This document shows, piece by piece, positions 1 through 42,010 of a stretch of DNA of 64,000 bases. Source of the DNA: Prolixibacteraceae bacterium (GTDB lineage: Bacteria > Bacteroidota > Bacteroidia > Bacteroidales > Prolixibacteraceae); the NCBI GenBank assembly GCA_019459525.1, contig JAIBEY010000050.1, forward strand, positions 5,588 through 69,587. The letters are read 5' to 3'. Position numbers and translations under genes: made by a program. The notes below the pieces were generated by a model. It saw only the letters and a program-made list of their open reading frames with translations. It searched no databases and was not told where the DNA came from. Each line of letters begins with the position of its first letter. The first letter of the stretch is position 1.

Positions 1-2
1 TT

Positions 3-371
3 CCCGCCATTAAAAATGCCGACGATCTTTCACTCGAAGGTCTTTCCGGACAGATGCAGTCCATCGCCGGACAATGCCGCAAAGGCAATGTGAGTCCGGA
101 GTTATTGGCTCCTGAAGCTGCAACTTTCACCATTTCCAACTTGGGAAATTACGGTGTTGAAATGTTTACGCCGGTCATCAACATCCCGCAAACCGCTATT
201 CTCGGCGTTTGTACCATTGTTCCACGTCCGAAAGATTTGGGAGACGGCGTTTACGGGTTCGTTCCAATGATGGGTTTGTCACTGACCTACGATCATCAAG
301 CTCTCGATGGCGGCGAAGCAACGTTGTTCCTGAGAGAGATCAAAGAACAAATCGAAAACCTGACGATTTAA
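3..371 (+). CDS. 2-oxoacid dehydrogenase E2 (dihydrolipoamide acyltransferase), C-terminal catalytic part; 5'-truncated by the window edge
   Basis: Frame is open from base 3. TFTISNLG, FTPVINIPQTAILGV and LSLTYDHQALDG match the E2 catalytic domain. It precedes lpdA. Confidence 0.93.
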   Translation, partial: PAIKNADDLSLEGLSGQMQSIAGQCRKGNVSPELLAPEAATFTISNLGNYGVEMFTPVINIPQTAILGVCTIVPRPKDLGDGVYGFVPMMGLSLTYDHQALDGGEATLFLREIKEQIENLTI

Positions 372-374
372 ATA

Positions 375-405
375 GTTCCAAGTTTCAGGTTTCAAGTTCC
401 AAGTT
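375..405 (+). repeat. Heptamer tandem array (GTTCCAA/GTTTCAG/GTTTCAA/GTTCCAA), forward copy 1
   Basis: Four 7-bp units read directly after the E2 stop codon. Confidence 0.9.
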
Positions 406-581
406 GCCCTGATTCGCGATTGTTCTTGCCCTGAAGGGGCAACATATCAATAACCCGGGGTAAACGACGAAGGAGTGCAGCCCCGGGAACGAAAGGCAAA
501 GAAAAATCGTCCGCGAGAAAATGCTGAAAGAAGTGATATTCTATTTTCGGACGAAACGGAACAAACGATATTAAAAACGAT

Positions 582-609
582 GTAGAGACGCGATTAATCG
601 CGTCTCTAC
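582..609. repeat. 28-bp perfect palindrome, REP-like (GTAGAGACGCGATTAATCGCGTCTCTAC)
   Basis: Perfect inverted repeat starting with GTAG. A near-identical copy lies at 23127-23154. Confidence 0.85.
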
Positions 610-628
610 CCAAATTCAATAAAATACA

Positions 629-1987
629 ATGAGCAAAATATACGATTTAGCAATTATAGGTGGTGGCCCTGCTGGGTATGTCGCCGCAGAACGTGCGGGA
701 GCCAAAGGTCTGAGCGTGTTGATTTTCGACATGCGTTCGCTGGGCGGTGTTTGCCTGAATGAAGGTTGCATTCCGACCAAAACGCTTCTCAATTCGGCCA
801 AAGTGCTCGAATATGCTGAGGAAGCCGGCAAATACGGAATCAACGTGGAAAATATTTCCGTCGATTTCAAAAAGATCATGCTTCGCAAAGACAAGGTGGT
901 TCGCAAGCTGGTGGCCGGAATCGGTGCCAAAATGAAACATGCCAAAGCCGATGTGGTGATGGCCAAAGCAACCATTAAAGAAAAACGTGGCGAAGTAATT
1001 ACCATCGAAGCCGACGGTCAGGAATATCAGGCCAACCGCTTGTTGGTTTGCTCCGGATCGGAAGCTGCTGTTCCACCCATTCCGGGACTGGATGTATCAC
1101 AGATTCTGACCAACCGCGAAATTCTTCAGTTAAAAGAAAAGCCTGAAAGCCTTGTCATCATTGGCGGCGGTGTAATCGGAACTGAATTTGCCGATTTCTT
1201 CAACGCCATGGGCACCAAGGTAACCGTCATCGAAATGCTTCCGGAGATTTTAACCGGAGTAGATGAAGAAATTGCTGCTTTTGTGCGCAAAGAATTTGTA
1301 AAAAAGGGTGTGGAATTTCACCTGAAAGCGCGTGTGACCAAACTCAATGGCAAAGAAGTGGTATTCGAAAAAGACGGTCAGGAAATGAAAATTACCGGAG
1401 AACAGGTGCTGCTTTCTGTTGGACGAAAAGTCAATGTGGCCGGAATTGGTCTGGAAAATATTGGTGTTGAATTTACGCCAAAAGGAGTAAAAATCGATCA
1501 GAATTGCCGTACCAACGTGCCGAATGTTTATGCTGCGGGCGACATCACCGGATTCTCATTGCTGGCTCACACCGCTAGTCGCGAAGGCGAAGTGGCCGTG
1601 AATCACATGCTGGGTCGGAAAGATGTGATGCGCTACGATGCTATTCCGGGAGTAGTTTATACTCATCCGGAGATTGCCGGAGTCGGTTTAACTGAAACTC
1701 AGGCCAAAGAAAAAGGCATTGAAGTGGAAGTAAAACAACTGCCAATGGCTTATGCCGGACGGTTTGTTGCTGAAAATGAAGGCAAAGACGGTTTCTGCAA
1801 AGTGATTGTCGGCAAAAAATACCGCGAAATTCTCGGAATCCATATGGTTGGCGGAGCCTGTTCCGAAATGATCTGGGGCGCCTGTGCCATCATCGAAGCG
1901 CAACTGCGCATTCAGGATGTGGAAGAAATCGTTTTCCCGCATCCAACCGTGAGTGAGATCATCAAGGAAACGATATTTCTCTTTTAG
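629..1987 (+). CDS. lpdA: Dihydrolipoyl dehydrogenase (E3)
   Basis: GGGPAGY FAD motif, GGVCLNEGCIPTK redox disulfide, GGGVIG NAD motif, HPTVSE C-terminal motif. Confidence 0.97.
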   Translation: MSKIYDLAIIGGGPAGYVAAERAGAKGLSVLIFDMRSLGGVCLNEGCIPTKTLLNSAKVLEYAEEAGKYGINVENISVDFKKIMLRKDKVVRKLVAGIGAKMKHAKADVVMAKATIKEKRGEVITIEADGQEYQANRLLVCSGSEAAVPPIPGLDVSQILTNREILQLKEKPESLVIIGGGVIGTEFADFFNAMGTKVTVIEMLPEILTGVDEEIAAFVRKEFVKKGVEFHLKARVTKLNGKEVVFEKDGQEMKITGEQVLLSVGRKVNVAGIGLENIGVEFTPKGVKIDQNCRTNVPNVYAAGDITGFSLLAHTASREGEVAVNHMLGRKDVMRYDAIPGVVYTHPEIAGVGLTETQAKEKGIEVEVKQLPMAYAGRFVAENEGKDGFCKVIVGKKYREILGIHMVGGACSEMIWGACAIIEAQLRIQDVEEIVFPHPTVSEIIKETIFLF

Positions 1988-2014
1988 TTCCAAGTTTCAA
2001 ATTCCAAGTTCCAA
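1987..2014 (+). repeat. Heptamer tandem array (GTTCCAA/GTTTCAA/ATTCCAA/GTTCCAA), forward copy 2
   Basis: Four 7-bp units starting at the lpdA stop codon. Confidence 0.9.
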
Positions 2015-2061
2015 GTGGAGCTTTGAATGAAGGTTTAGCTTATCCAATAAAATTTACAGAT

Positions 2062-2451
2062 ATGTCGAAAGTTGAACGGTTTGAAGATTTAAAGATTTGG
2101 CAGTTGGCTAGGGAGCTTTGTCTGATTATTCATAAACTAACGATCAAAGATCAATTTTCAAGGGATTTTAAGCTTGTGGGGCAGATCAATGGCTCTTCAG
2201 GTTCGATCATGGACAATATTGCAGAAGGTTTTGAACGTGATGGTAATAAAGAGTTTATCCAATTCCTAACATTCTCAAAAGGTTCGTGCGGAGAGACTCG
2301 CTCACAGCTTTATCGGGCATTGGACTATCAGTATATCACGCAGGAGGAATTTGATGCAGCTTACAAAATGACACTGGAAGAGAGTAAAATGCTAAAAAGT
2401 TTTATCCAATACCTGAAAGATTCTGAACTAAAAGGCAATAGATTTAAATAG
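2062..2451 (+). CDS. Four helix bundle protein (23S rRNA IVS-protein / Avd-like family)
   Basis: RFEDLKIWQLARELC...FSRDFKLVGQINGSSGSIMDNIAEGFER...FIQFLTFSKGSCGETRSQL is the family signature. ATG at 2062 is preferred over TTG at 2023. Confidence 0.93.
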   Translation: MSKVERFEDLKIWQLARELCLIIHKLTIKDQFSRDFKLVGQINGSSGSIMDNIAEGFERDGNKEFIQFLTFSKGSCGETRSQLYRALDYQYITQEEFDAAYKMTLEESKMLKSFIQYLKDSELKGNRFK

Positions 2452-2470
2452 AAGACCTTCGCAGCCAGAC

Positions 2471-2498
2471 TTGGAACCTGAAATTTGGAACTTGAAAC
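2471..2498 (-). repeat. Heptamer array, inverted copy 1 (TTGGAAC/CTGAAAT/TTGGAAC/TTGAAAC)
   Basis: Reverse complement of the arrays at 375 and 1987. Confidence 0.9.
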
Positions 2499-2561
2499 TT
2501 TTAAAAATAACTGAATAATAAATAGTCAATAATCAATATCCAAAACCTCCGCACACGAGAC

Positions 2562-2589
2562 TTGGAACCTGAAATTTGAAACTTGGAAT
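2562..2589 (-). repeat. Heptamer array, inverted copy 2 (TTGGAAC/CTGAAAT/TTGAAAC/TTGGAAT)
   Basis: Reverse complement of the arrays at 375 and 1987. Confidence 0.9.
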
Positions 2590-2648
2590 CTGCTCATAAA
2601 AGAGAAACCCATATTAACAACGAAAAACAAATTTAAAATCTAAATACG

Positions 2649-5117
2649 ATGCCAAAAAGTCAATTTATTGATCCATCAGAAGTCAGGAAAGCTGGTGAAA
2701 TTACATTCAATCCGATTCCTGTAAACCAGTACAACAAAACTGTTGAAGAAGAAAAAGCGAACTTCTCGAACGAAGATTTGCTGCGTATTTACCGCGATAT
2801 GGTGGTGATCCGCGAGTTCGAAACCATGCTGAACCTGATCAAAATCCGTGGCGATTACAACGGAATTGCCTACGATCATCCGGGACCAGCTCACTTGTCA
2901 ATCGGACAGGAAGCTGCTGCCGTTGGTATGGCTTACACGCTGGGCGTGGAGGATTTTATCTTCGGATCGCACCGCTCCCACGGCGAAATTCTGGCCAAAG
3001 GTTTATCTGCCATCGCCAAGCTTAACGACGAACAACTGATGCAGGTGATGGAAAGTCATTTCGACGGAATCACCTTCGCCCCGGTTAAAAACGGACATTC
3101 AGGAACAGTAAAAGAACTGGCCGTAAAATTCCTGATTTACGGAACGCTGGCCGAAATTTTTGCGCGAGAAACCGGCTTCAACAAAGGATTGGGCGGTTCG
3201 ATGCACGCTTTCTTTACGCCATTTGGTGTATATCCGAACAATGCCATCGTGGGTGGTTCGGGCGACATAGCTGTGGGTGCTGCGCTCTACAAAAAAGTAA
3301 ACCGCAAACCGGGAATCGTGGTAGCCAACATTGGCGACGCTTCGATGGCCTGCGGTCCGGTTTGGGAAGGTCTGGCTTTTGCAACCATGGATCAGTTCAA
3401 CGAATTGTGGGAAGGCGATATGAAAGGCGGACTTCCGTTGATCATCAACATCATGAACAACCAATACGGCATGGGCGGACAAACCTGTGGCGAAACAATG
3501 GGCTATAACATTGCTGCGCGTATCGGTGCTGGCGTGAATGCCGATCAGCTTCATGCCGAACGTGTTGACGGGTACAATACGCTCGCCGTTATTGACGCCT
3601 ACAAACGCAAACTCAAAATTCTGGAAGAAAAACGCGGACCGGTTTTATTGGACGTTTTAACTTACCGTTACAGCGGGCACTCGCCTTCGGATGCATCGTC
3701 GTACCGCTCGAAAGAAGAAGTGGAAGCCTGGGAAGCTCAGGATTCGATTGCCTGGTTTGGCCGCGAACTGGTGAAAGCCGGTGTGGCAACCGAAGATCAG
3801 TTGACCGGAATCAAAGGCGACACCATCAGCCTGATGGAATCGAGCATGAAACTGGCTATCGACCTGGAAATCTCTCCACGCATGGACATGGCGAAATATC
3901 CGAATCTGATTGGCGAAATGATGTTCTCGAACGAGTCGGTTGACAAAATGGAAGACCGCACTCCGGACGTGAATCACCCGATGGCCGAAAACCCACGTGT
4001 ACAGCAATTGGCTAAAAAAGAACGTTTTGCTTTTGACGAAAATGGCAAAGCGCACTCCAAAATAAAAACGTACGCATACCGCGACGGTATTTTCGAGGCC
4101 ATCGTCGATCGTTTCTACAAAGATCCTACTCTGATTGCTTACGGAGAAGAAAACCGCGACTGGGGCGGCGCGTTTGCCGTGTATCGCGGTCTGACCGAAG
4201 CGTTACCTTATCACCGTTTGTTCAACTCACCGATTTCGGAAGCTTCGATCGTTGGAACTGCCATTGGTTACGCCATGTGTGGCGGCCGTGTGATTCCTGA
4301 AATCATGTATTGCGACTTCCTCGGACGTTGCGGCGACCAGGTGTTCAACCAGCTTCCCAAATGGCAGGCCATGAGTGGAAACGTGATCAAAATGCCGGTG
4401 GTGTTGCGCGTTTCGGTAGGTTCGAAATACGGCGCACAACACTCACAAGACTGGACCGCTTTAACTGCCCAGATTCCGGGACTGAAAGTTGTTTTCCCTG
4501 CAACTCCATATGATGCCAAAGGTTTGATGAATGCCGCTTTGCAGGGAACCGATCCGGTGATTTTCTTCGAAAGCCAGCGTTTGTACGACATGGGTGAAAT
4601 GTTCCACAAAGGTGGTGTTCCTGAAGGTTATTACGAAATTGCCATTGGCGAGCCGGATATCAAACGCGAGGGAAAAGATGTAACCATCCTGACCATTGGT
4701 GCCACGTTGTACCGTGCGCTGGAAGCTGCTGACATTCTTCAGGAAAAATACGGCATGTCGGCTGAAGTGATCGATGCCCGCAGTTTGAGTCCGTTTAACT
4801 ACGAACCCGTTTTGGCTTCCATCAAAAAGACCGGTCGTATCGTGATTTCGGGCGATGCTTCATCGCGTGGTTCGTTCATGAAAGAAATGGCGCAAACCAT
4901 TTCCGAACTGGCTTTCGACGACCTGGACGCTCCACCGGTAGTGGTTGGCTCGCGCAACTGGATCACTCCGGCTTACGAACTCGAAAACTCCTTCTTCCCA
5001 TGTGCTGAATGGATGATCGACGCCATCCACGAAAAGATTGTTCCGCTGAAAGGCCATGTGGTGAAAAACAATTTCACCAGCGCAGAGCAGATCAGAAGGA
5101 ATAAATTGGGAGTATAA
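2649..5117 (+). CDS. 2-oxoacid/acetoin-type dehydrogenase E1, fused alpha+beta subunits (TPP-dependent)
   Basis: Alpha motifs HLSIGQEA, GSHRSHG, GDAS...NN and TYRYSGHS. Beta motifs GEENRDWGGAF, NSPISEASIVG, EIMYCDF, GAQHSQ and DPVIFFE. Confidence 0.92.
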   Translation: MPKSQFIDPSEVRKAGEITFNPIPVNQYNKTVEEEKANFSNEDLLRIYRDMVVIREFETMLNLIKIRGDYNGIAYDHPGPAHLSIGQEAAAVGMAYTLGVEDFIFGSHRSHGEILAKGLSAIAKLNDEQLMQVMESHFDGITFAPVKNGHSGTVKELAVKFLIYGTLAEIFARETGFNKGLGGSMHAFFTPFGVYPNNAIVGGSGDIAVGAALYKKVNRKPGIVVANIGDASMACGPVWEGLAFATMDQFNELWEGDMKGGLPLIINIMNNQYGMGGQTCGETMGYNIAARIGAGVNADQLHAERVDGYNTLAVIDAYKRKLKILEEKRGPVLLDVLTYRYSGHSPSDASSYRSKEEVEAWEAQDSIAWFGRELVKAGVATEDQLTGIKGDTISLMESSMKLAIDLEISPRMDMAKYPNLIGEMMFSNESVDKMEDRTPDVNHPMAENPRVQQLAKKERFAFDENGKAHSKIKTYAYRDGIFEAIVDRFYKDPTLIAYGEENRDWGGAFAVYRGLTEALPYHRLFNSPISEASIVGTAIGYAMCGGRVIPEIMYCDFLGRCGDQVFNQLPKWQAMSGNVIKMPVVLRVSVGSKYGAQHSQDWTALTAQIPGLKVVFPATPYDAKGLMNAALQGTDPVIFFESQRLYDMGEMFHKGGVPEGYYEIAIGEPDIKREGKDVTILTIGATLYRALEAADILQEKYGMSAEVIDARSLSPFNYEPVLASIKKTGRIVISGDASSRGSFMKEMAQTISELAFDDLDAPPVVVGSRNWITPAYELENSFFPCAEWMIDAIHEKIVPLKGHVVKNNFTSAEQIRRNKLGV

Positions 5118-5132
5118 TTCTTGATAAATGCA

Positions 5133-5165
5133 ACTGACGGGGTGATCTGGAGTCACCCCGTCAGT
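5133..5165. terminator. 13-bp-stem hairpin after the E1 gene
   Basis: ACTGACGGGGTGA / TCACCCCGTCAGT, with no clear U-tract. A second GU-containing hairpin lies at 5191-5229. Confidence 0.55.
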
Positions 5166-5234
5166 ACGATAAAATAAGTGTATAAATGAAACGAGCCCTC
5201 GTTGTCCGGAAAGGATGGCGGGGGCTTGTGGCGT

Positions 5235-5504
5235 TTAGTAAACCTCTTTGTGATTTCCAATGTCAACAAAAACTGCCTTCTTGGGCTTGTCGTCAGTGAA
5301 ATAAAAGATTACTCTTAAATCGTAATCAACTGAAAAGCTCCAAAGGTCTTTCAATTTTCCAGTAAGCTTGTGCGTTTTTAGTTGAGGTGCAAATGGTTCG
5401 CTGATAAATAGTTCGAGTCTGATCCAAAATTCCGACTCCAACTCAGTCATTTTGACCCGCTTTTTGAAAGCCTTTTTGAACGAATCACTAAATGCAACTT
5501 CCAT
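5235..5504 (-). CDS. Type II toxin, RelE/YafQ (mRNA interferase) family
   Basis: 89 aa with FKKAFKK...LKTHKLTGKLKDLWSFSVDYDLRVIFYF...DIGNHKEVY. Its start overlaps the upstream stop (TAATG). Confidence 0.88.
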   Translation of the reverse strand: MEVAFSDSFKKAFKKRVKMTELESEFWIRLELFISEPFAPQLKTHKLTGKLKDLWSFSVDYDLRVIFYFTDDKPKKAVFVDIGNHKEVY

Positions 5505-5719
5505 TACAGCATGTTCTTAAGTTCGGAAATATTGGATGAGAAACTTAGTTTGCCGGATTTGTGTTCTTCCTTTGCTTTTTTTGCATTATTGGCGATTTCT
5601 TTCCTTCTGCTATCTGCAATATTGTGCTCCAAAAGGTTTTTAAGCTCTAATTTATCTTCAAGTGGCATCCCGTAAATCTGATCCACCAGTTCGTTGAATT
5701 GTATGGTTTGTGTTTTCAT
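5504..5719 (-). CDS. Putative cognate antitoxin
   Basis: 71 aa, translationally coupled upstream of the toxin. The C-terminus ...GKLSFSSNISEL resembles antitoxin tails. Confidence 0.72.
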   Translation of the reverse strand: MKTQTIQFNELVDQIYGMPLEDKLELKNLLEHNIADSRRKEIANNAKKAKEEHKSGKLSFSSNISELKNML

Positions 5720-5967
5720 GTGTGAATAATTTGTTTTTATTGGTCACATGGAATAGTCGTGATTTGAAACGATATTCTCATTTTCGATTAGCATTTGCTA
5801 AACCATGGCTACTTCATATTGCTGTTATTTTTTTCTGATTCACGAAGATAGTTATTTTTCTTCTGGGCAGAGAGATATGATCTCGCTTTCAAAGCGACTA
5901 ATTCGTAGAAGCGCCCAAACAATCAAAATTTTCTTCCGCAAATTGTAGAAGAAAATTTTTGATTGAT

Positions 5968-6172
5968 TTGGAGGTTCTGCAATTTGCAGAGGGTTCCCCT
6001 GACTCCGATTGGAGCTTCTGCAATTTGAGGATGGTTCTTCTTACTCCGATTGGAGCTTCTGCATTTTGTGGATGGTTCCCGTGACTAAGGTTGGAGCTTC
6101 TACAATTTGTAGAGGGTTGCGCTGACTCCGATTGGAGGTTCTACAATTTGTAGAAGGATTCAGACAATCAGC
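5968..6172. repeat. 41-bp tandem repeat, 5 copies (a degenerate sixth lies just upstream)
   Basis: TTGGAG starts at 5968, 6009, 6050, 6091 and 6132. Internal palindrome TTCTRCAA-T-TTGYAGA. Confidence 0.92.
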
Positions 6173-6296
6173 GGTGAGTTTCTCAATTTATTCATCTGGT
6201 TGCCCGGCATGCTAAGTAATGAAAACTATCAAATGTCGTATTTCAGTTTTGACACTGTATCCCGGGAAGCGGGATACCTAAAATTTATTCTACCAC

Positions 6297-6585
6297 ACCT
6301 GCCCGACACAGCTACCGTGTGTACACAAATCTATCACCTTTTGCTTTATGACAATTTATAGAAGGTTCATATTTTTAAAACCTTATTTTTTCAGAAAAAC
6401 CTTAGTAGCACGGTAACCACCATCCTGTTTGAACCTTATTTTGTGTTAAAACAGGACATATTAATAAGGTTTATGTTTTGGGTTTGCATGTTTTGTACTG
6501 AGGTTGCCCAATAAAAATAAGGTTTTATCAATAGACATGTTGTCGAAAAAGATGTGGCTACACGGTAGCCGACACAGGCGGGGAT
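6297..6585. repeat. Long imperfect palindrome (MITE-like or structured RNA)
   Basis: Nested inverted pairs: 6311-6320/6560-6569, 6377-6390/6513-6526 and 6398-6407/6496-6505. Confidence 0.7.
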
Positions 6586-16178: not shown

Positions 16179-16250
16179 TTGCGAGTTCCGAGGCACGAGT
16201 TGCACAAACAACCTGTAACCCGTAACACGCAACCTACAACCCGTAACTCA
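16179..16250. repeat. Inverted heptamer arrays (TTGCGAG-type versus YAACCYG-type)
   Basis: Three forward and six reverse 7-bp units ending at the lpxB ATG. Confidence 0.8.
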
Positions 16251-17384
16251 ATGAAATATTACGTTTTAGCTGGTGAAGCCTCGGGCGATTTGCACGCCTC
16301 GAACCTGATCAAAGAAATCAGTTTGATTGATAAGCAGGCGCAATTTCGCGGATTTGGTGGCGACCTGATGGAAAAAGCTGGGATGACCGTGCTGAAACAT
16401 TACCGCGACATGGCATTTATGGGCATCGTACCGGTTATTATGAATTTCCGTACTATCCGTAATAACTTCCGGTTTTGCGAAGAAGATATGCTTGCCTTTC
16501 AACCCGATGTGCTGATTTTGGTTGATTATCCCGGATTTAACCTACGGATGGCCAAATTCGCCAAAGCACACGGAATACGCACTTTTTATTATATTTCACC
16601 GAAAATATGGGCATGGAAAGAACAGCGTGTACACAAAGTAAAAGCCTATGTGGACGATCTGTTTGCCATTTTGCCTTTCGAGGCAGAGTTTTACCGGAAG
16701 TATGTTTATCCGGTTAATTACGTGGGCAACCCGCTGCTCGATGCCATACTGGAAAAGAAAACTGTACCAGACTTTCCGAAGTTTTGGGCTGAAAATAAAC
16801 TGCCTGAAAAGCCCATTTTAGCCCTTTTGCCCGGAAGCCGAAAAGCTGAAATCAGTGTTCTGTTGCCTACGATGCTCGAAGCTGCGGCCCAATTTCCGGA
16901 ATATCAATGTATCATTGCCGGTGCTCCCAATATGGGAGTCGAATTCTATTCACCTTTCATGAAAGGAAGCCAGGTTCCGGTTATCTGGGGTAGAACTTAC
17001 GAAATACTGACGCACAGCAGGGTAGCCATTGTATCTTCGGGTACCGCAACGCTCGAAACAGCCATTATGAATGTGCCTCAAGTAGTGGTTTATCAGCTCA
17101 CACCCAACTGGTTATTTAAATACCTCAAAAAGTTTTTTCTGAAAACCAGGTGGGTTTCGCTTGTCAACATTATTTTGGGTCGTGAAGCCGTTGCGGAATT
17201 AATACAATCAGACTTTACCCTGAAAAATGTCGTAAACGAACTAAAAAAAATTCTGCATAATCCGGAAAATGAGAAACGGATGCTGGCCGATTACCACGAT
17301 ATGATGATCAAGCTGGGCGAACCTGGAGCTTCCAAACGGGCGGCAGTGTTGATGGTGGGGAAATTAAATCTGCAAAAAAAATAG
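16251..17384 (+). CDS. lpxB: Lipid-A-disaccharide synthase
   Basis: YYVLAGEASGDLH, LVDYPGFN, YYISPKIWAWK, VGNPLLD, LLPGSR and SGTATLE. Confidence 0.97.
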   Translation: MKYYVLAGEASGDLHASNLIKEISLIDKQAQFRGFGGDLMEKAGMTVLKHYRDMAFMGIVPVIMNFRTIRNNFRFCEEDMLAFQPDVLILVDYPGFNLRMAKFAKAHGIRTFYYISPKIWAWKEQRVHKVKAYVDDLFAILPFEAEFYRKYVYPVNYVGNPLLDAILEKKTVPDFPKFWAENKLPEKPILALLPGSRKAEISVLLPTMLEAAAQFPEYQCIIAGAPNMGVEFYSPFMKGSQVPVIWGRTYEILTHSRVAIVSSGTATLETAIMNVPQVVVYQLTPNWLFKYLKKFFLKTRWVSLVNIILGREAVAELIQSDFTLKNVVNELKKILHNPENEKRMLADYHDMMIKLGEPGASKRAAVLMVGKLNLQKK

Positions 17385-35160: not shown

Positions 35161-35254
35161 CAAATGCCCCATGCTCTTTGCCCTATGCCAAAAATAAAAA
35201 CAGGAGTACTCAGGAAATGGTCGAAAAAGTTGTACTTTTGTAGCCCTTAATACC

Positions 35255-39233: not shown

Positions 39234-41957
39234 ATGACAAAGTACGTTTACACGTTTGGAAATGGTGCAGCTGAAGGAAAGGCTGACATGAAGAATTTAC
39301 TTGGAGGTAAAGGTGCAAACCTTGCTGAGATGAACCTCATCGGAGTTCCGGTTCCTCCGGGATTTACCATCACCACTGAAGTGTGTACCATTTACAATAA
39401 ACTGGGTCGTGAAAAAGTTATCGAACTTCTTAAAACTGACGTTGAAGCTGCTATTGCCCAGGTGGAAAGACAAACCGGTGGAAAATTCGGCGATGCTTCC
39501 AATCCGCTTTTGGTTTCAGTACGTTCGGGTGCACGCGCTTCTATGCCCGGAATGATGGATACCATCCTGAACCTCGGTTTGAATAATACCGTAGTGGAAG
39601 GAATGGCTAAAAAAACCGGAAATCCACGTTTCGTTTGGGATAGCTACCGTCGTTTTGTACAAATGTACGGCGATGTGGTTCTTGATATGAAACCCACTTC
39701 AAAAACGGATATTGACCCCTTCGAAGAAATTCTGGAAGAAGTTAAACACGAAAAAGGAGTAATTAACGACAACGAACTTTCAGTAGAAGCTTTACAAGAA
39801 TTGGTTGTAAAATTTAAAGCAGCAGTTAAAGCCAAAACGGGTCACGATTTCCCCGAAAGTTCATGGGATCAACTTTGGGGTGCTGTTTGTGCCGTATTCA
39901 ACAGCTGGATGAACGACCGTGCCATTTATTACCGCCAGTTAAACCAGATTCCTGAAGAATGGGGAACTGCTGTTAACGTACAGGCTATGGTATTTGGGAA
40001 CATGGGCCTTACTTCAGGAACTGGAGTTTGCTTTAGCCGCGACGCCGGAACCGGTGAAAACATGTTCAACGGCGAATATTTGATCAATGCCCAGGGCGAA
40101 GACGTGGTGGCCGGTATCCGTACCCCACAGCAAATTACCCTCGAAGGTTCAAAACGCTGGGCCGAACTGGCTGGTGTTTCTGAAGCTGACCGTGCAGCCA
40201 AATATCCTTCTCTCGAAGAATCAATGCCAGAAATGTACAGGGAGTTATTCGATATTCAGAATAAACTCGAAAAGTACTTTACCGACATGCAAGACATGGA
40301 GTTCACCATTCAGGAAGGTAAAATGTGGATGTTGCAAACCCGCAACGGAAAACGTACCGGCGCAGCCATGGTTCAAATTGCCATCGACATGCTGAAAGAA
40401 GGCCTGATTGATGAAAAGACTGCACTACTCCGCGTTGAACCCAACAAATTAGACGAGTTATTACACCCTGTATTCGATAAAAAAGCGATTAAAGCTGCCC
40501 GTGTATTAGCGAAAGGACTACCGGCCTCCCCGGGAGCTGCAACCGGACAAATCGTATTCTTTGCAGACGAGGCAGAAGAATGGGTAGCACAAGGCAAAAG
40601 CGTGGTTTTAGTTCGTATAGAAACTTCTCCGGAAGACCTTCGTGGGATGAACGTAGCCAAAGGTATTTTAACTGCACGTGGGGGTATGACTTCGCACGCT
40701 GCGGTTGTTGCCCGCGGAATGGGTAAATGTTGTGTATCGGGAGCTGGAGCCCTCCAAATTGACTACAAAGCCCGCACCATGATTGTTGACGGGAAAATGT
40801 TCAAAGAAGGTGATTTCATATCGCTGAACGGAACCACCGGGGAAGTTTACGAAGGTAAAATTGCTACGATCGATCCGGAATTGAGCGGCTATTTTGGAGA
40901 ACTGATGACAATTGCCGACAAATACAAACGCATGAGTGTACGTACCAATGCCGATACTCCCAAAGATGCCCAGATCGCACGTAATTTCGGGGCACAAGGT
41001 ATTGGATTAACCCGTACCGAGCACATGTTCTTTGAAGGCGAACGCATTAAAGCCATGCGCGAAATGATTTTAGCCGACGATGTTACCGGACGCGAAAAAG
41101 CGCTCGAAAAACTGTTGCCAATGCAGCGTAGCGATTTCGAAGGTATTTTTGAAGCGATGGCTGGCTACGGCGTAACCATTCGTTTGCTCGATCCGCCGTT
41201 GCACGAATTTGTTCCTCACGAAGAAGCTAATCAGCTCGAAATGGCTAAAGAAATGGGCATTTCGGTTGAGCAGGTAAAACATAAAGTAGAATCACTGCAC
41301 GAATTTAACCCGATGTTGGGTCACCGTGGGTGCCGTTTGGGTATCACCTATCCTGAAATTACAGCCATGCAAGCCCGTGCCATCATTGAAGCTGCTCTTA
41401 ACCTGAAAGCCAGGGGTGTTGATGCCCGTCCGGAAATTATGGTTCCGCTGGTAGGCACAGTTGCTGAATTGAAAAACCAGACCGACATCATTCGTAGTGT
41501 AGCCGAAAAAGTGTTTGCTGAAAAAGGCGACCGCATCGACTACCAGGTAGGTACCATGATAGAAATTCCACGTGCTGCATTAACAGCCGACCACATTGCT
41601 GCCGAAGCTGATTTCTTCTCATTCGGGACCAACGATTTAACCCAGATGACTTTGGGTTACTCGCGCGACGATGCCGGCAAATTTCTACCCGATTACCTCA
41701 ACCGTGGCATCCTGAAACAAGATCCTTTCCAGATATTGGATCAGAACGGCGTTGGTCTGCTGGTTGAAATCGGTGTTACCCGTGGCCGCATGACCAAACC
41801 CAATCTGAAAGTGGGTATTTGCGGCGAACACGGCGGCGAACCAAGCTCTGTTGAATTCTGCGACAAAGTGGGTATGAGCTACGTAAGCTGTTCGCCTTAC
41901 CGCGTGCCGATTGCACGTTTGGCTGCCGCTCAGGCAAATATTAAACACAGTAAATAA
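39234..41957 (+). CDS. ppdK: Pyruvate, phosphate dikinase
   Basis: [40 protein letters not shown] (phospho-His), [21 protein letters not shown] and GICGEHGG. Confidence 0.98.
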
Positions 41958-42010
41958 GACGGAAGACAGAAGTCTGAAGTCAAGAATTAAAAGATAAGCA
42001 ATTTGAATTG

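Follow-up and report, generated by a model that had tools for sequence, protein, structure and literature searches.

A four-helix-bundle gene in a Prolixibacteraceae operon is bracketed by inverted heptamer arrays, a layout shared with 23S rRNA intervening sequences

Within a 64,000-nucleotide (nt) stretch of DNA from a Prolixibacteraceae bacterium (GenBank assembly GCA_019459525.1, contig JAIBEY010000050.1, positions 5,588 to 69,587 of the forward strand; hereafter the window), a four-helix-bundle (4HB) gene lies in an operon of the order E2-lpdA-4HB-E1, co-directional with both neighbours. Positions ~1972-2589 form a compact gene cassette, in which a 5' array of tandem heptamers is followed by the PF05635 gene and then by 3' arrays that reverse-complement the first. 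This heptamer-hairpin architecture proves to be the rule for the 4HB gene family in every lineage examined. The interpretation that we favour, with confidence little better than even, is that the element is a cassette of the intervening sequence (IVS) type residing in mRNA, tolerated through looping out by its arms or through their cleavage by RNase III.

A first-pass annotation of the window had described four arrays of a single heptamer family, two forward (F1, F2) and two reverse (R1, R2), and these were confirmed as the only ones in the 64 kb. Parsed from the sequence, F1 reads GTTCCAA GTTTCAG GTTTCAA GTTCCAA and F2 reads GTTCCAA GTTTCAA ATTCCAA GTTCCAA, while R1 (TTGGAAC CTGAAAT TTGGAAC TTGAAAC) and R2 (TTGGAAC CTGAAAT TTGAAAC TTGGAAT) belong to the same family in reverse complement. 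The pattern (RTTYCAR)x4 with at most one mismatch has four matches, which are exactly F1, F2, R1 and R2 (chance expectation of 0.00 from 100 dinucleotide shuffles). The program TRF calls the F and R arrays independently and also returns a second family at 2514-2538 (AATAATC, 3.6 copies), bearing out the different heptamer family that had been placed between the reverse arrays. Pfam and the list of open reading frames (ORFs) give the gene content as originally claimed, the inner pair of arrays enclosing the 4HB ORF and the outer pair lpdA as well (Table 1). The lpdA stop codon (TAG, 1985-1987) shares its last base with the first base of F2, and the motif that precedes R1 also precedes the R arrays at orthologous loci. 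Judged by profile scores the 4HB protein is a clear PF05635/TIGR02436 member: it matches PF05635 ('23S rRNA-intervening sequence protein', S23p) at 111 bits (cut-off 33.8, E 4e-32) over profile positions 1-105 of 106, and TIGR02436 (NCBIfam) at 105.3 bits (cut-off 24, E 1.9e-30). A phmmer search with it retrieved 2GSC (E 1e-6) and 2RLD (E 2e-4), both deposited with five chains. Positions 1-6500 gave no Rfam match (E up to 1) and contain no rRNA.

Table 1. Features of the window in and around the cassette (L-numbers, here and in the text, denote relatives' loci)
Feature	Position	Strand	Remarks
E2 (dihydrolipoamide acyltransferase), 3' end	1..371	+	Pfam 2-oxoacid_dh, E 1.9e-26; TAA at 369-371; upstream operon gene
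F1, four forward heptamers	375..402	+	begins 3 nt past E2 stop; predicted partner R2
E2-lpdA spacer	403..628	+	structured core ~412-590 conserved with L001
lpdA (dihydrolipoyl dehydrogenase, E3)	629..1987	+	Pfam Pyr_redox_2, Pyr_redox_dim
F2, four forward heptamers, cassette 5' arm	1987..2014	+	
4HB gene, 129 aa, cassette cargo	2062..2451	+	PF05635, TIGR02436
R1, reverse array, inner 3' arm	2471..2498	-	TTCGCAGCCAGAC motif just before
Second heptamer family, AATAATA AATAGTC AATAATC AATATCC	2514..2541	+	without inverted partner
R2, reverse array, outer 3' arm	2562..2589	-	positional orthologue of relatives' single R array
E1 leader	2590..2648	+	position of short local hairpin CTC-ATAAAA-GAG
Fused E1 alpha-beta 2-oxoacid dehydrogenase component	2649..5117	+	Pfam E1_dh, Transket_pyr, Transketolase_C; downstream operon gene

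The arms are complementary in every combination, with inverted matches of 29 nt at 93% (F2/R2), 29 nt at 90% (F1/R2), 24 nt at 92% (F1/R1) and 42 nt at 79% (F2/R1). The RNA duplex energies of the four combinations are -36 to -43 kcal/mol versus -10 to -12 kcal/mol (standard deviation ~3) for shuffled sequences. The minimum free energy fold of 340-2660 pairs F1 with R2 and, nested within, F2 with R1, so that the predicted structure is precisely the nested arrangement first proposed. When 1960-2650 is folded alone, F2 pairs with R2 instead.

Secondly, the layout extends across relatives in the Bacteroidota. Our sample comprised 80 genomic loci encoding the closest 4HB relatives, with 83 4HB genes, from Bacteroidia, Flavobacteriia, Cytophagia, Chitinophagia and one Rhodohalobacter. 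Read by eye, nearly every one of these genes is bracketed by short tandem heptamers, the downstream array reverse-complementing the upstream one. A period-7 array detector (15-17 of 21 matches, three thresholds, background measured in the same loci) returned 2.6-3.9 arrays per kb within 150 nt of 4HB genes versus 0.04-0.12 per kb elsewhere in these loci, a 33-58-fold enrichment in the flanks over the three thresholds. Identity at lag 7/lag 14 is 0.47/0.42 upstream and 0.43/0.40 downstream, and 0.27/0.30 within the gene. Scored without gaps, the best inverted match of a gene's two flanks has a median of 14 versus 8 for permuted partners, and it exceeds 99% of shuffles in 61 of the 83 genes (direct matches do so in 19 of 83, and matches of either kind in 68 of 83). 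Shuffles and ungapped scores were used here because a permuted-partner control with RNAduplex (100-nt flanks) did not discriminate, many loci sharing AU-rich heptamers. The search for inverted heptamer arrays beside other 4HB genes, which the first-pass annotation had put forward as a check, was thus positive in these 61 genes, in 11 of 12 plasmid-borne ones outside the Bacteroidota, and in Xanthomonas.

The heptamer itself varies by locus (GTTTAAA, GTTCAGA, GATTTGA, GGGTTGC, GTTCCGT and GTTACGG among others), with the two arms agreeing within each; where one genome carries two cassettes within a few kb, each has a heptamer of its own that matches between its arms (L049, L051, L059, L080). The register of the upstream array is fixed to the start codon (...AAGTT directly followed by ATG, with T at -1/-2, -8/-9 and -15/-16), and this phase-locking makes array and gene one unit. 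In 79 of 81 cases the upstream neighbour is read in the same direction as the 4HB gene, and in 78 of 83 the downstream one, at median gaps of 74 and 56 nt, respectively; the cassette resides inside operons. In 516 kb of sequence ascertained by E1 alone there are 14 inverted heptamer-array pairs, of which 6 are short hairpins; the other 8, with arms 150-3000 nt apart, all have a 4HB gene between them.

Thirdly, the inverted-heptamer layout recurs in Cyanobacteria, in Xanthomonas and in a 23S rRNA IVS of Azospirillum in addition to the Bacteroidota, a recurrence across the sampled groups that suggests a single widespread cassette prone to gain and loss. Plasmids searched by tblastn yielded mainly cyanobacterial 4HB genes, and the layout is present, with other heptamers, in 10 of the 11 cyanobacterial regions that we read, Calothrix PCC 7716 (L120) being ambiguous. 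The arms are CAGGAGT.../...ACTCCTG in Nostoc punctiforme, GGGAACA/TGTTCCC in N. edaphicum, GACAGGT/ACCTGTC in Anabaena sp. 90, AAAGGGA/TCCCTTT in Geminocystis and GGGTGTA/TACACCC in Calothrix brevissima, and comparable arrays flank the 4HB genes of Stanieria, Aulosira, Picosynechococcus and Nostoc sp. ATCC 53789. Here, too, the neighbours on both sides run in the direction of the 4HB gene, and some are CRISPR-system genes: one cassette sits between cas6 and cas4 (L121, Anabaena sp. 90 pANA02) and another between cas10/cmr2 and cmr3 (L123, Picosynechococcus PCC 7003 plasmid). Among the CRISPR-linked proteins of a large clustering study is '23S rRNA IVP' (PMC10910872). Insertion into operons, without any functional tie to CRISPR, could explain that entry, and as a practical warning, 4HB genes between cas genes could give spurious 'CRISPR-associated' calls.

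In Xanthomonas, relatives of 2GSC lie between accB and accC, flanked upstream by GGGAATC GGGAGTG GAGAATC GGGAATC and downstream by CATTCCC CATTCCC GACTCCC TATTCCC, the latter touching the accC ATG. These flanks are the repeat family that Rehm et al. (2015) described as G-quadruplex-forming GGGAATC repeats with 70-75 'convergent pairs', where no link to this gene was made (PMC4692102). The sole proteobacterial plasmid match, in Azospirillum lipoferum, is a genuine 23S rRNA intervening sequence: the rRNA runs straight into CAGAGGA CGGATGA CAGAGGA CGGAGGA, followed by the ORF, then TCCGTCC TCTGTCT TCTGTCA TCCGTCT, and then 23S rRNA again.

Finally, the ORF is not fixed at the junction between lpdA (or E2) and E1, where relatives show it absent, present, pseudogenised or exchanged. 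Among 80 loci ascertained by the E1 N-terminus there are four states upstream of E1, namely E2-E1 (spacers of 4-76 nt), E2-4HB-E1, E2-lpdA-E1 and E2-lpdA-4HB-E1, and 15 of the 80 match the 4HB profile (L194 is doubtful, being 13-19% identical to the others). In the closest relatives (E1 amino acid identity of 93-98%), L125 has neither arrays nor 4HB gene, L128 and L129 retain F, F' and R arrays and have no 4HB gene (E1 of these three is 94-95% identical to the window), L126 has GTTCCAA arrays of the window type with a broken 4HB gene (a pseudogene), L148 carries a window-type cassette with a premature stop, and in L127, L001 and L002 the allele is another one, whose arrays are of the GTTTAAA type. 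L147 and L144 (94% nucleotide identity in E1) show one site in its occupied and its empty form. L147 has thirty GTTCAGA units, a 4HB gene and an R array, and the empty site of L144 has a mini hairpin (GTTTCAG GTTACAG GTT, loop, ACCGAAAC CTGAAAC). The upstream arm of L147 (1425-1640) comprises ~30 GTTCAGA/GTTCAAA units versus 4 downstream, so array length is highly unstable and asymmetric. Where intact, 4HB genes are under strong purifying selection (dN/dS, the ratio of nonsynonymous to synonymous divergence, 0.03-0.12).

Divergence at the junction separates the cassette from its surroundings. Between the window and L001 the flanks have dS of 0.62-0.71 and dN of 0.02-0.03, lpdA is 95.6% identical in amino acids and homology stops at 1971, while the 4HB proteins are 66% identical with dN of 0.26 and saturated third positions. 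Against L148, dS is 3.4 in the 4HB gene versus 0.42 in E1, and a relative with 96% identical flanks carries a 4HB copy that is non-orthologous to that of the window. A vertically inherited but fast-evolving gene was rejected as the explanation, since synonymous sites are saturated, flank dS is only 0.4-0.7, and the 4HB gene evolves slowly between L001 and L002 (4HB dS 0.75 and dN 0.03, yet E1 dS 1.06). The saturation relative to the low flank dS therefore indicates that the window cassette is not the vertical orthologue of its neighbours' copies; on these comparisons an exchange took place, whose left boundary is at 1971, in the last four lpdA codons, and whose right boundary lies near R2. The relatives' single R array (TTTAAAC TTTAAAT TTTAAAC TTTAAAC, well conserved in five relatives) aligns with R2, but the R2 units complement the new F units of the window, unlike the relatives' R at the same position. 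From its alignment, R2 is the positional orthologue of the relatives' R, re-tuned to the new F sequence. Within E1 itself (2670-2870), identity to the closest relative L148 is 96-98% for the first ~200 nt and 86-91% thereafter, which suggests a recombination break close to the cassette.

The turnover and the phase-locking bear on two alternatives. In the first, ordinary spacer repeats generated by slippage (leaders, stabilisers or attenuators) would belong to the host, and 4HB genes would merely land or survive in their loops. Arrays and hairpins are found without a 4HB gene in the window (16181-16247), in relatives' spacers and, frequently right beside a start codon, in contigs of phages; the arrays change length readily (30 units in L147, variation between Coxiella strains); heptamer over-representation is published (PMC4692102, PMC4679880); and the empty site of L144 keeps its mini hairpin. 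This account, which we judge quite unlikely, does not explain why arrays are phase-locked to the 4HB ATG, why the exchange of the window cassette changed the arrays too, R2 included (from GTTTAAA to GTTCCAA type), why all long-loop inverted pairs that were found have a 4HB gene, and only that, between their arms, or why the layout appears inside 23S rRNA, where no operon spacer exists.

The second alternative is an element mobile at the DNA level, whose arrays would be terminal inverted repeats for a recombinase or transposase acting in trans, or single-stranded DNA hairpins like those of repetitive extragenic palindromes (REP) and their RAYT transposases. The 4HB gene would then be cargo or an accessory factor, short hairpins would be derivatives resembling MITEs (miniature transposable elements with inverted repeats), and RNA pairing would be a by-product. 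The first-pass annotation had offered an RNA-linked mobile cassette with no transposase of its own, and mobility is seen as turnover: the element is polymorphic for presence, the cassette was replaced together with its own arrays, and the fixed array-ATG junction indicates that array and gene travel together. The array sequence is also multicopy in the source community, where many contigs branch at the arrays and F-loop-R joints with loops of 9-17 nt occur, and the arms lack RNA-strand asymmetry. No mechanism of movement was found, no target-site duplication being visible at cassette ends and no transposase or recombinase gene adjoining the cassettes examined. A single trans-acting enzyme would moreover need to recognise the different heptamers within one genome, and the near-universal co-orientation with host transcription is unexpected for a DNA transposon; we consider a DNA-level element unlikely.

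Phase variation, in which the inverted arrays would serve as an invertible DNA switch, was also considered. Bacteroidota are rich in invertons, and inverted repeats of ~28 bp do flank a gene. The 4HB gene is co-directional with its neighbours in ~95% of loci, no strand-switch joints were reported at the arrays in any run covering the locus, and there is no invertase gene nearby, and on these grounds the switch was rejected as very improbable.

We return to the IVS-type cassette in mRNA, in which the element would be the mRNA-borne counterpart of the ORF-bearing 23S rRNA IVS. The arms would pair in the polycistronic transcript to form a ~21-28 bp stem (F2:R1 and, in this genome, also F1:R2), looping the insert out and bringing the stop codon of the upstream gene beside the start region of the one that follows. 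The stem would likely be an RNase III substrate, like the IVS stem, and either looping out or cleavage would make the insertion harmless to the operon. At E2-4HB-E1 loci and in Xanthomonas the F array begins in the stop codon of the preceding gene or directly at it, and 0-14 nt separate the end of the R array from the following ATG; ribosomes terminating there would then be set, by the base of the stem, beside the start of the downstream gene. The 5' array, which is A/U-rich in Bacteroidota and purine-rich and Shine-Dalgarno-like (GGAG/GAGG motifs) elsewhere, may double as a translation-initiation leader of the 4HB gene; Bacteroidota largely do not use Shine-Dalgarno pairing. Homologous exchange via the flanks, with recombination or slippage at the arrays, would be sufficient for the cassette movement that is seen. 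By analogy, an experimental precedent for arm cleavage is the Coxiella IVS, whose 28-bp terminal-repeat stem is cut by RNase III with ends mapped within the stem (Warrier et al., PMC4990558).

Several observations weigh against this interpretation. About a quarter of the Bacteroidota loci have no significant inverted match, direct arrays occur instead in the 19 genes counted above (e.g. L001, L004, L007, L022), heptamer arrays and short hairpins of heptamers are often met where there is no 4HB gene, and F1 is not conserved. R2 ends 59 nt before the E1 ATG, giving a looser stop/start juxtaposition in the window. An extension of the stem seen in the 1960-2650 fold, TTTCTCTTTT (1976-1985) with AAAAGAGAAA (2598-2607), was rejected as a true partner and is probably spurious: what follows R in relatives is a local hairpin that covaries (GCTC..GAGC, TTGCTT..AAGCAA in the E1 leader, read by eye). 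Metatranscriptome contigs with the locus all break at the repeats, and no excision product was found among the joints; candidate joints at the arrays were rejected as such products, being other loci or alleles (F-loop-R hairpins), one allele joining 1971 to 2634 through 39 unrelated bases. Arm mismatches on the sense strand show no preference for G:U (43) over A:C (48), and duplex stability shows no sense-antisense asymmetry (39 versus 43 loci). With no RNA-strand asymmetry, RNA-level selection cannot be claimed from sequence, and processes acting on DNA, such as template switching or gene conversion, could keep the arms complementary.

The 4HB protein might alternatively act on the arrays itself, a pentamer binding its own heptamers as RNA or DNA with about one subunit per heptamer, for autoregulation, RNase III protection or propagation of the cassette, as Avd binds retroelement RNA and reverse transcriptase (RT). 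The five-chain PDB relatives (2GSC is described as a homopentameric toroid, PMC4990558), the typical array length of 3-5 units, the strong purifying selection on a protein without a known host role and the reported homology to Avd (PMC10053308) are all consistent with such binding. The heptamers differ widely between cassettes though the proteins are all ~60-65% identical, unit number ranges from 2 to 30, and the window protein is not basic (pI 6.6), making this proposal improbable in our view.

The outer array F1 has a different history from the cassette. The first-pass annotation had the outer pair enclosing lpdA as well, but F1 is unique to the window, no relative examined having it. In L001 its position is taken by a GC-rich palindrome, no GTTCCAA-type array occurs in the E2-lpdA spacers of L001 and L125-L129, and unrelated heptamer hairpins occupy that spacer in L126-L129 and L135; at loci without lpdA the single F array begins in the E2 stop codon. 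F1 is read from these alignments as a lineage-specific extra solo array and not as conserved design, and the enclosure of lpdA therefore looks incidental, probably so for any looping out of that gene. The second heptamer family resembles AAATCAA/AATAATC arrays that stand directly before the E1 ATG in distant relatives (L166, L168, L170, L173, L179, L180, L198), with an orthologous stretch in L148, and may be a displaced piece of an old E1 leader.

The spacers contain other structured sequence. A ~180-nt core of the E2-lpdA spacer is common to the window and L001 and has several hairpins, e.g. TCGTCCG...CGGACGA; the spacer has a fold energy of -70.8 kcal/mol and could be a candidate leader or small RNA for lpdA. 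A perfect palindrome with a 12-bp stem, GTAGAGACGCGATTAATCGCGTCTCTAC, lies at 582-609 in the same spacer and is not conserved. In some relatives the spacers upstream of E1 hold a second, GC-rich palindrome family (CCCCTTCGGGGAGG, or CCCCTAAAGGGG...CCCCTTTAGGGGTTGGGGG; L001 985-1030 and 1235-1275, L125, L189, L196, L200, L203, L204), members of which are apparently alternative occupants of the same spacer sites.

Further heptamer arrays occur in the window and in phages. A hairpin without a 4HB gene at 16181-16247 (GCGAGTT CCGAGGC ACGAGTT / AACCTGT AACCCGT AACACGC, then more AACCnnn units) ends 3 nt before an ATG at 16251, and the protein encoded there, a putative LpxB, starts MKYYVLAGEASGDLH. 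Solitary period-7 arrays, for which no inverted partner was found, lie at 35164-35189 (ATGCCCC ATGCTCT TTGCCCT ATGCCAA) and 41952-41985 (GAAGACA GAAGTCT GAAGTCA). Phage-like viral contigs (L081-L116) have (GTTTCAA)n or (TTGAAAC)n arrays that often abut start codons, some forming short hairpins whose loop has a CGCAGCCAAC motif resembling that before R1 (L086). None of the 36 viral contigs with (GTTYCAA)x3 holds a 4HB gene, and a phage origin was rejected, there being no tblastn match in 50,697 phage records.

Immediately downstream of E1, on the minus strand at 5235-5719, a YafQ/RelE-like toxin ORF (89 aa, PF15738, E 3e-8) shares one base with a 71-aa ORF without a Pfam match; the pair is likely a type II toxin-antitoxin system. 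A ~1-kb non-coding stretch separates it from a 515-aa minus-strand ORF that, from a reading of its sequence, encodes a putative methyltransferase. In this stretch a 41-nt unit (TTGGAGCTTCTGCAATTTGTAGAGGGTTCCCCTGACTCCGA), each copy with the palindrome TCTACAATTTGTAGA, is repeated head-to-tail 4.6 times at 5968-6154 (wider region 5900-6160), and 5890-6170 is strongly structured (-106 kcal/mol).

In open-access papers and bioRxiv we found no link between non-rRNA 4HB genes and flanking heptamer arrays, nor, in the open-access literature, one among the Xanthomonas, cyanobacterial and Coxiella heptamers, which is absence of evidence; there is a sizeable chance that the locus points to a general, undescribed cassette class. 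Three puzzles have been treated separately, namely the nature of the 23S rRNA IVS and their S23p ORFs, the excess of intergenic heptamers in Cyanobacteria, Xanthomonas and Bacteroidota, and the role of the abundant 4HB genes, and our results suggest that a single type of element, simple in architecture, underlies all three. A broader view, which we put forward tentatively as a minority possibility, is that PF05635 genes and self-complementary arrays constitute one ancient, phylum-spanning class of selfish 'hairpin-loop' cassettes that colonises rRNA helices and operon spacers, its protein propagating or protecting the cassette, possibly via an RNA intermediate and an Avd-like partnership with a polymerase; the short tandemly repeated repetitive (STRR) sequences of cyanobacteria, the GGGAATC repeats, the Coxiella IVS heptamers and the GTTYMAR arrays of Bacteroidota would then largely be its arms and relics. 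Tractable test beds are the Xanthomonas accB-4HB-accC locus (protein relative XCC0516, structure 2GSC), Nostoc and the Flavobacteriia loci, where RNase III processing, translational coupling across the looped-out insert and protein-repeat binding are open to test.

Among known systems, the diversity-generating retroelements (DGRs) share with the cassette a homologous pentameric four-helix bundle, the accessory protein Avd (PMC10053308), but in the window the surroundings are those of an operon spacer and not of a retroelement. Among the ORFs of the nearest 8 kb (E2, lpdA, 4HB, E1, the YafQ-like toxin and its partner ORF, the 515-aa ORF) there is no RT or template/variable repeat, the search for RT being confined to these and the Pfam scan covering six flanking ORFs, the 515-aa ORF excepted, and no long direct repeat with A-specific differences was found. 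With no adjacent RT or template/variable repeat pair, a DGR was rejected. REP elements, bacterial interspersed mosaic elements (BIMEs) and MITEs are likewise short multicopy intergenic palindromes that lie in operons, form mRNA hairpins and coexist with non-autonomous short forms. The arms here differ in being tandem heptamers that vary by copy, and the cargo is one specific gene family. Neighbouring cassettes of one genome, a few kb apart, have heptamers unrelated to each other, no RAYT-like ORF lies near the locus, no direct repeat abuts the outer array ends (window, L001, L002, L130-L147) and there is no transposase nearby.

The STRR and TAACTGA repeats, known from Cyanobacteria and some Bacteroidetes, are intergenic tandem heptamers that often stand immediately before start codons, as here (MacGregor 2015, PMC4679880). 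They are described as direct repeats, for which a post-transcriptional regulator was proposed, with no inverted pairing or 4HB cargo reported. The Xanthomonas GGGAATC repeats are intergenic tandem heptamers in inverted pairs, as in the window, with an unrelated heptamer sequence; they were read as G-quadruplexes with no assigned role and no 4HB link (PMC4692102).

The closest likeness is to the ORF-bearing 23S rRNA IVS of Coxiella burnetii and Leptospira (PMC4990558), in which an S23p/PF05635 protein is likewise encoded in the loop, between terminal inverted repeats forming a ~28 bp stem, and tandem heptamers stand directly upstream of the ORF start. Coxiella has 2 or 3 tandem GACAGAT heptamers before the S23p start, depending on the strain (PMC4990558), and this variable unit number and the proneness of the ORF to decay are both paralleled here. 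A stem of 20 bp or more around the insert is expected of an IVS, and the window arms match over 24-42 nt at 79-93%; in the window, too, the loop holds an ORF of the S23p family with tandem heptamers ahead of it. The window element differs in residing in a protein-coding operon spacer, between lpdA and E1, and not in helix 25 or 45 of 23S rRNA. RNase III cleavage, reported for Coxiella, is a prediction here, and the 4HB protein is under purifying selection, whereas the Coxiella IVS protein is probably not made. Since the Azospirillum 23S rRNA IVS shares the architecture, the 'mRNA IVS' analogy becomes one of homology of design.

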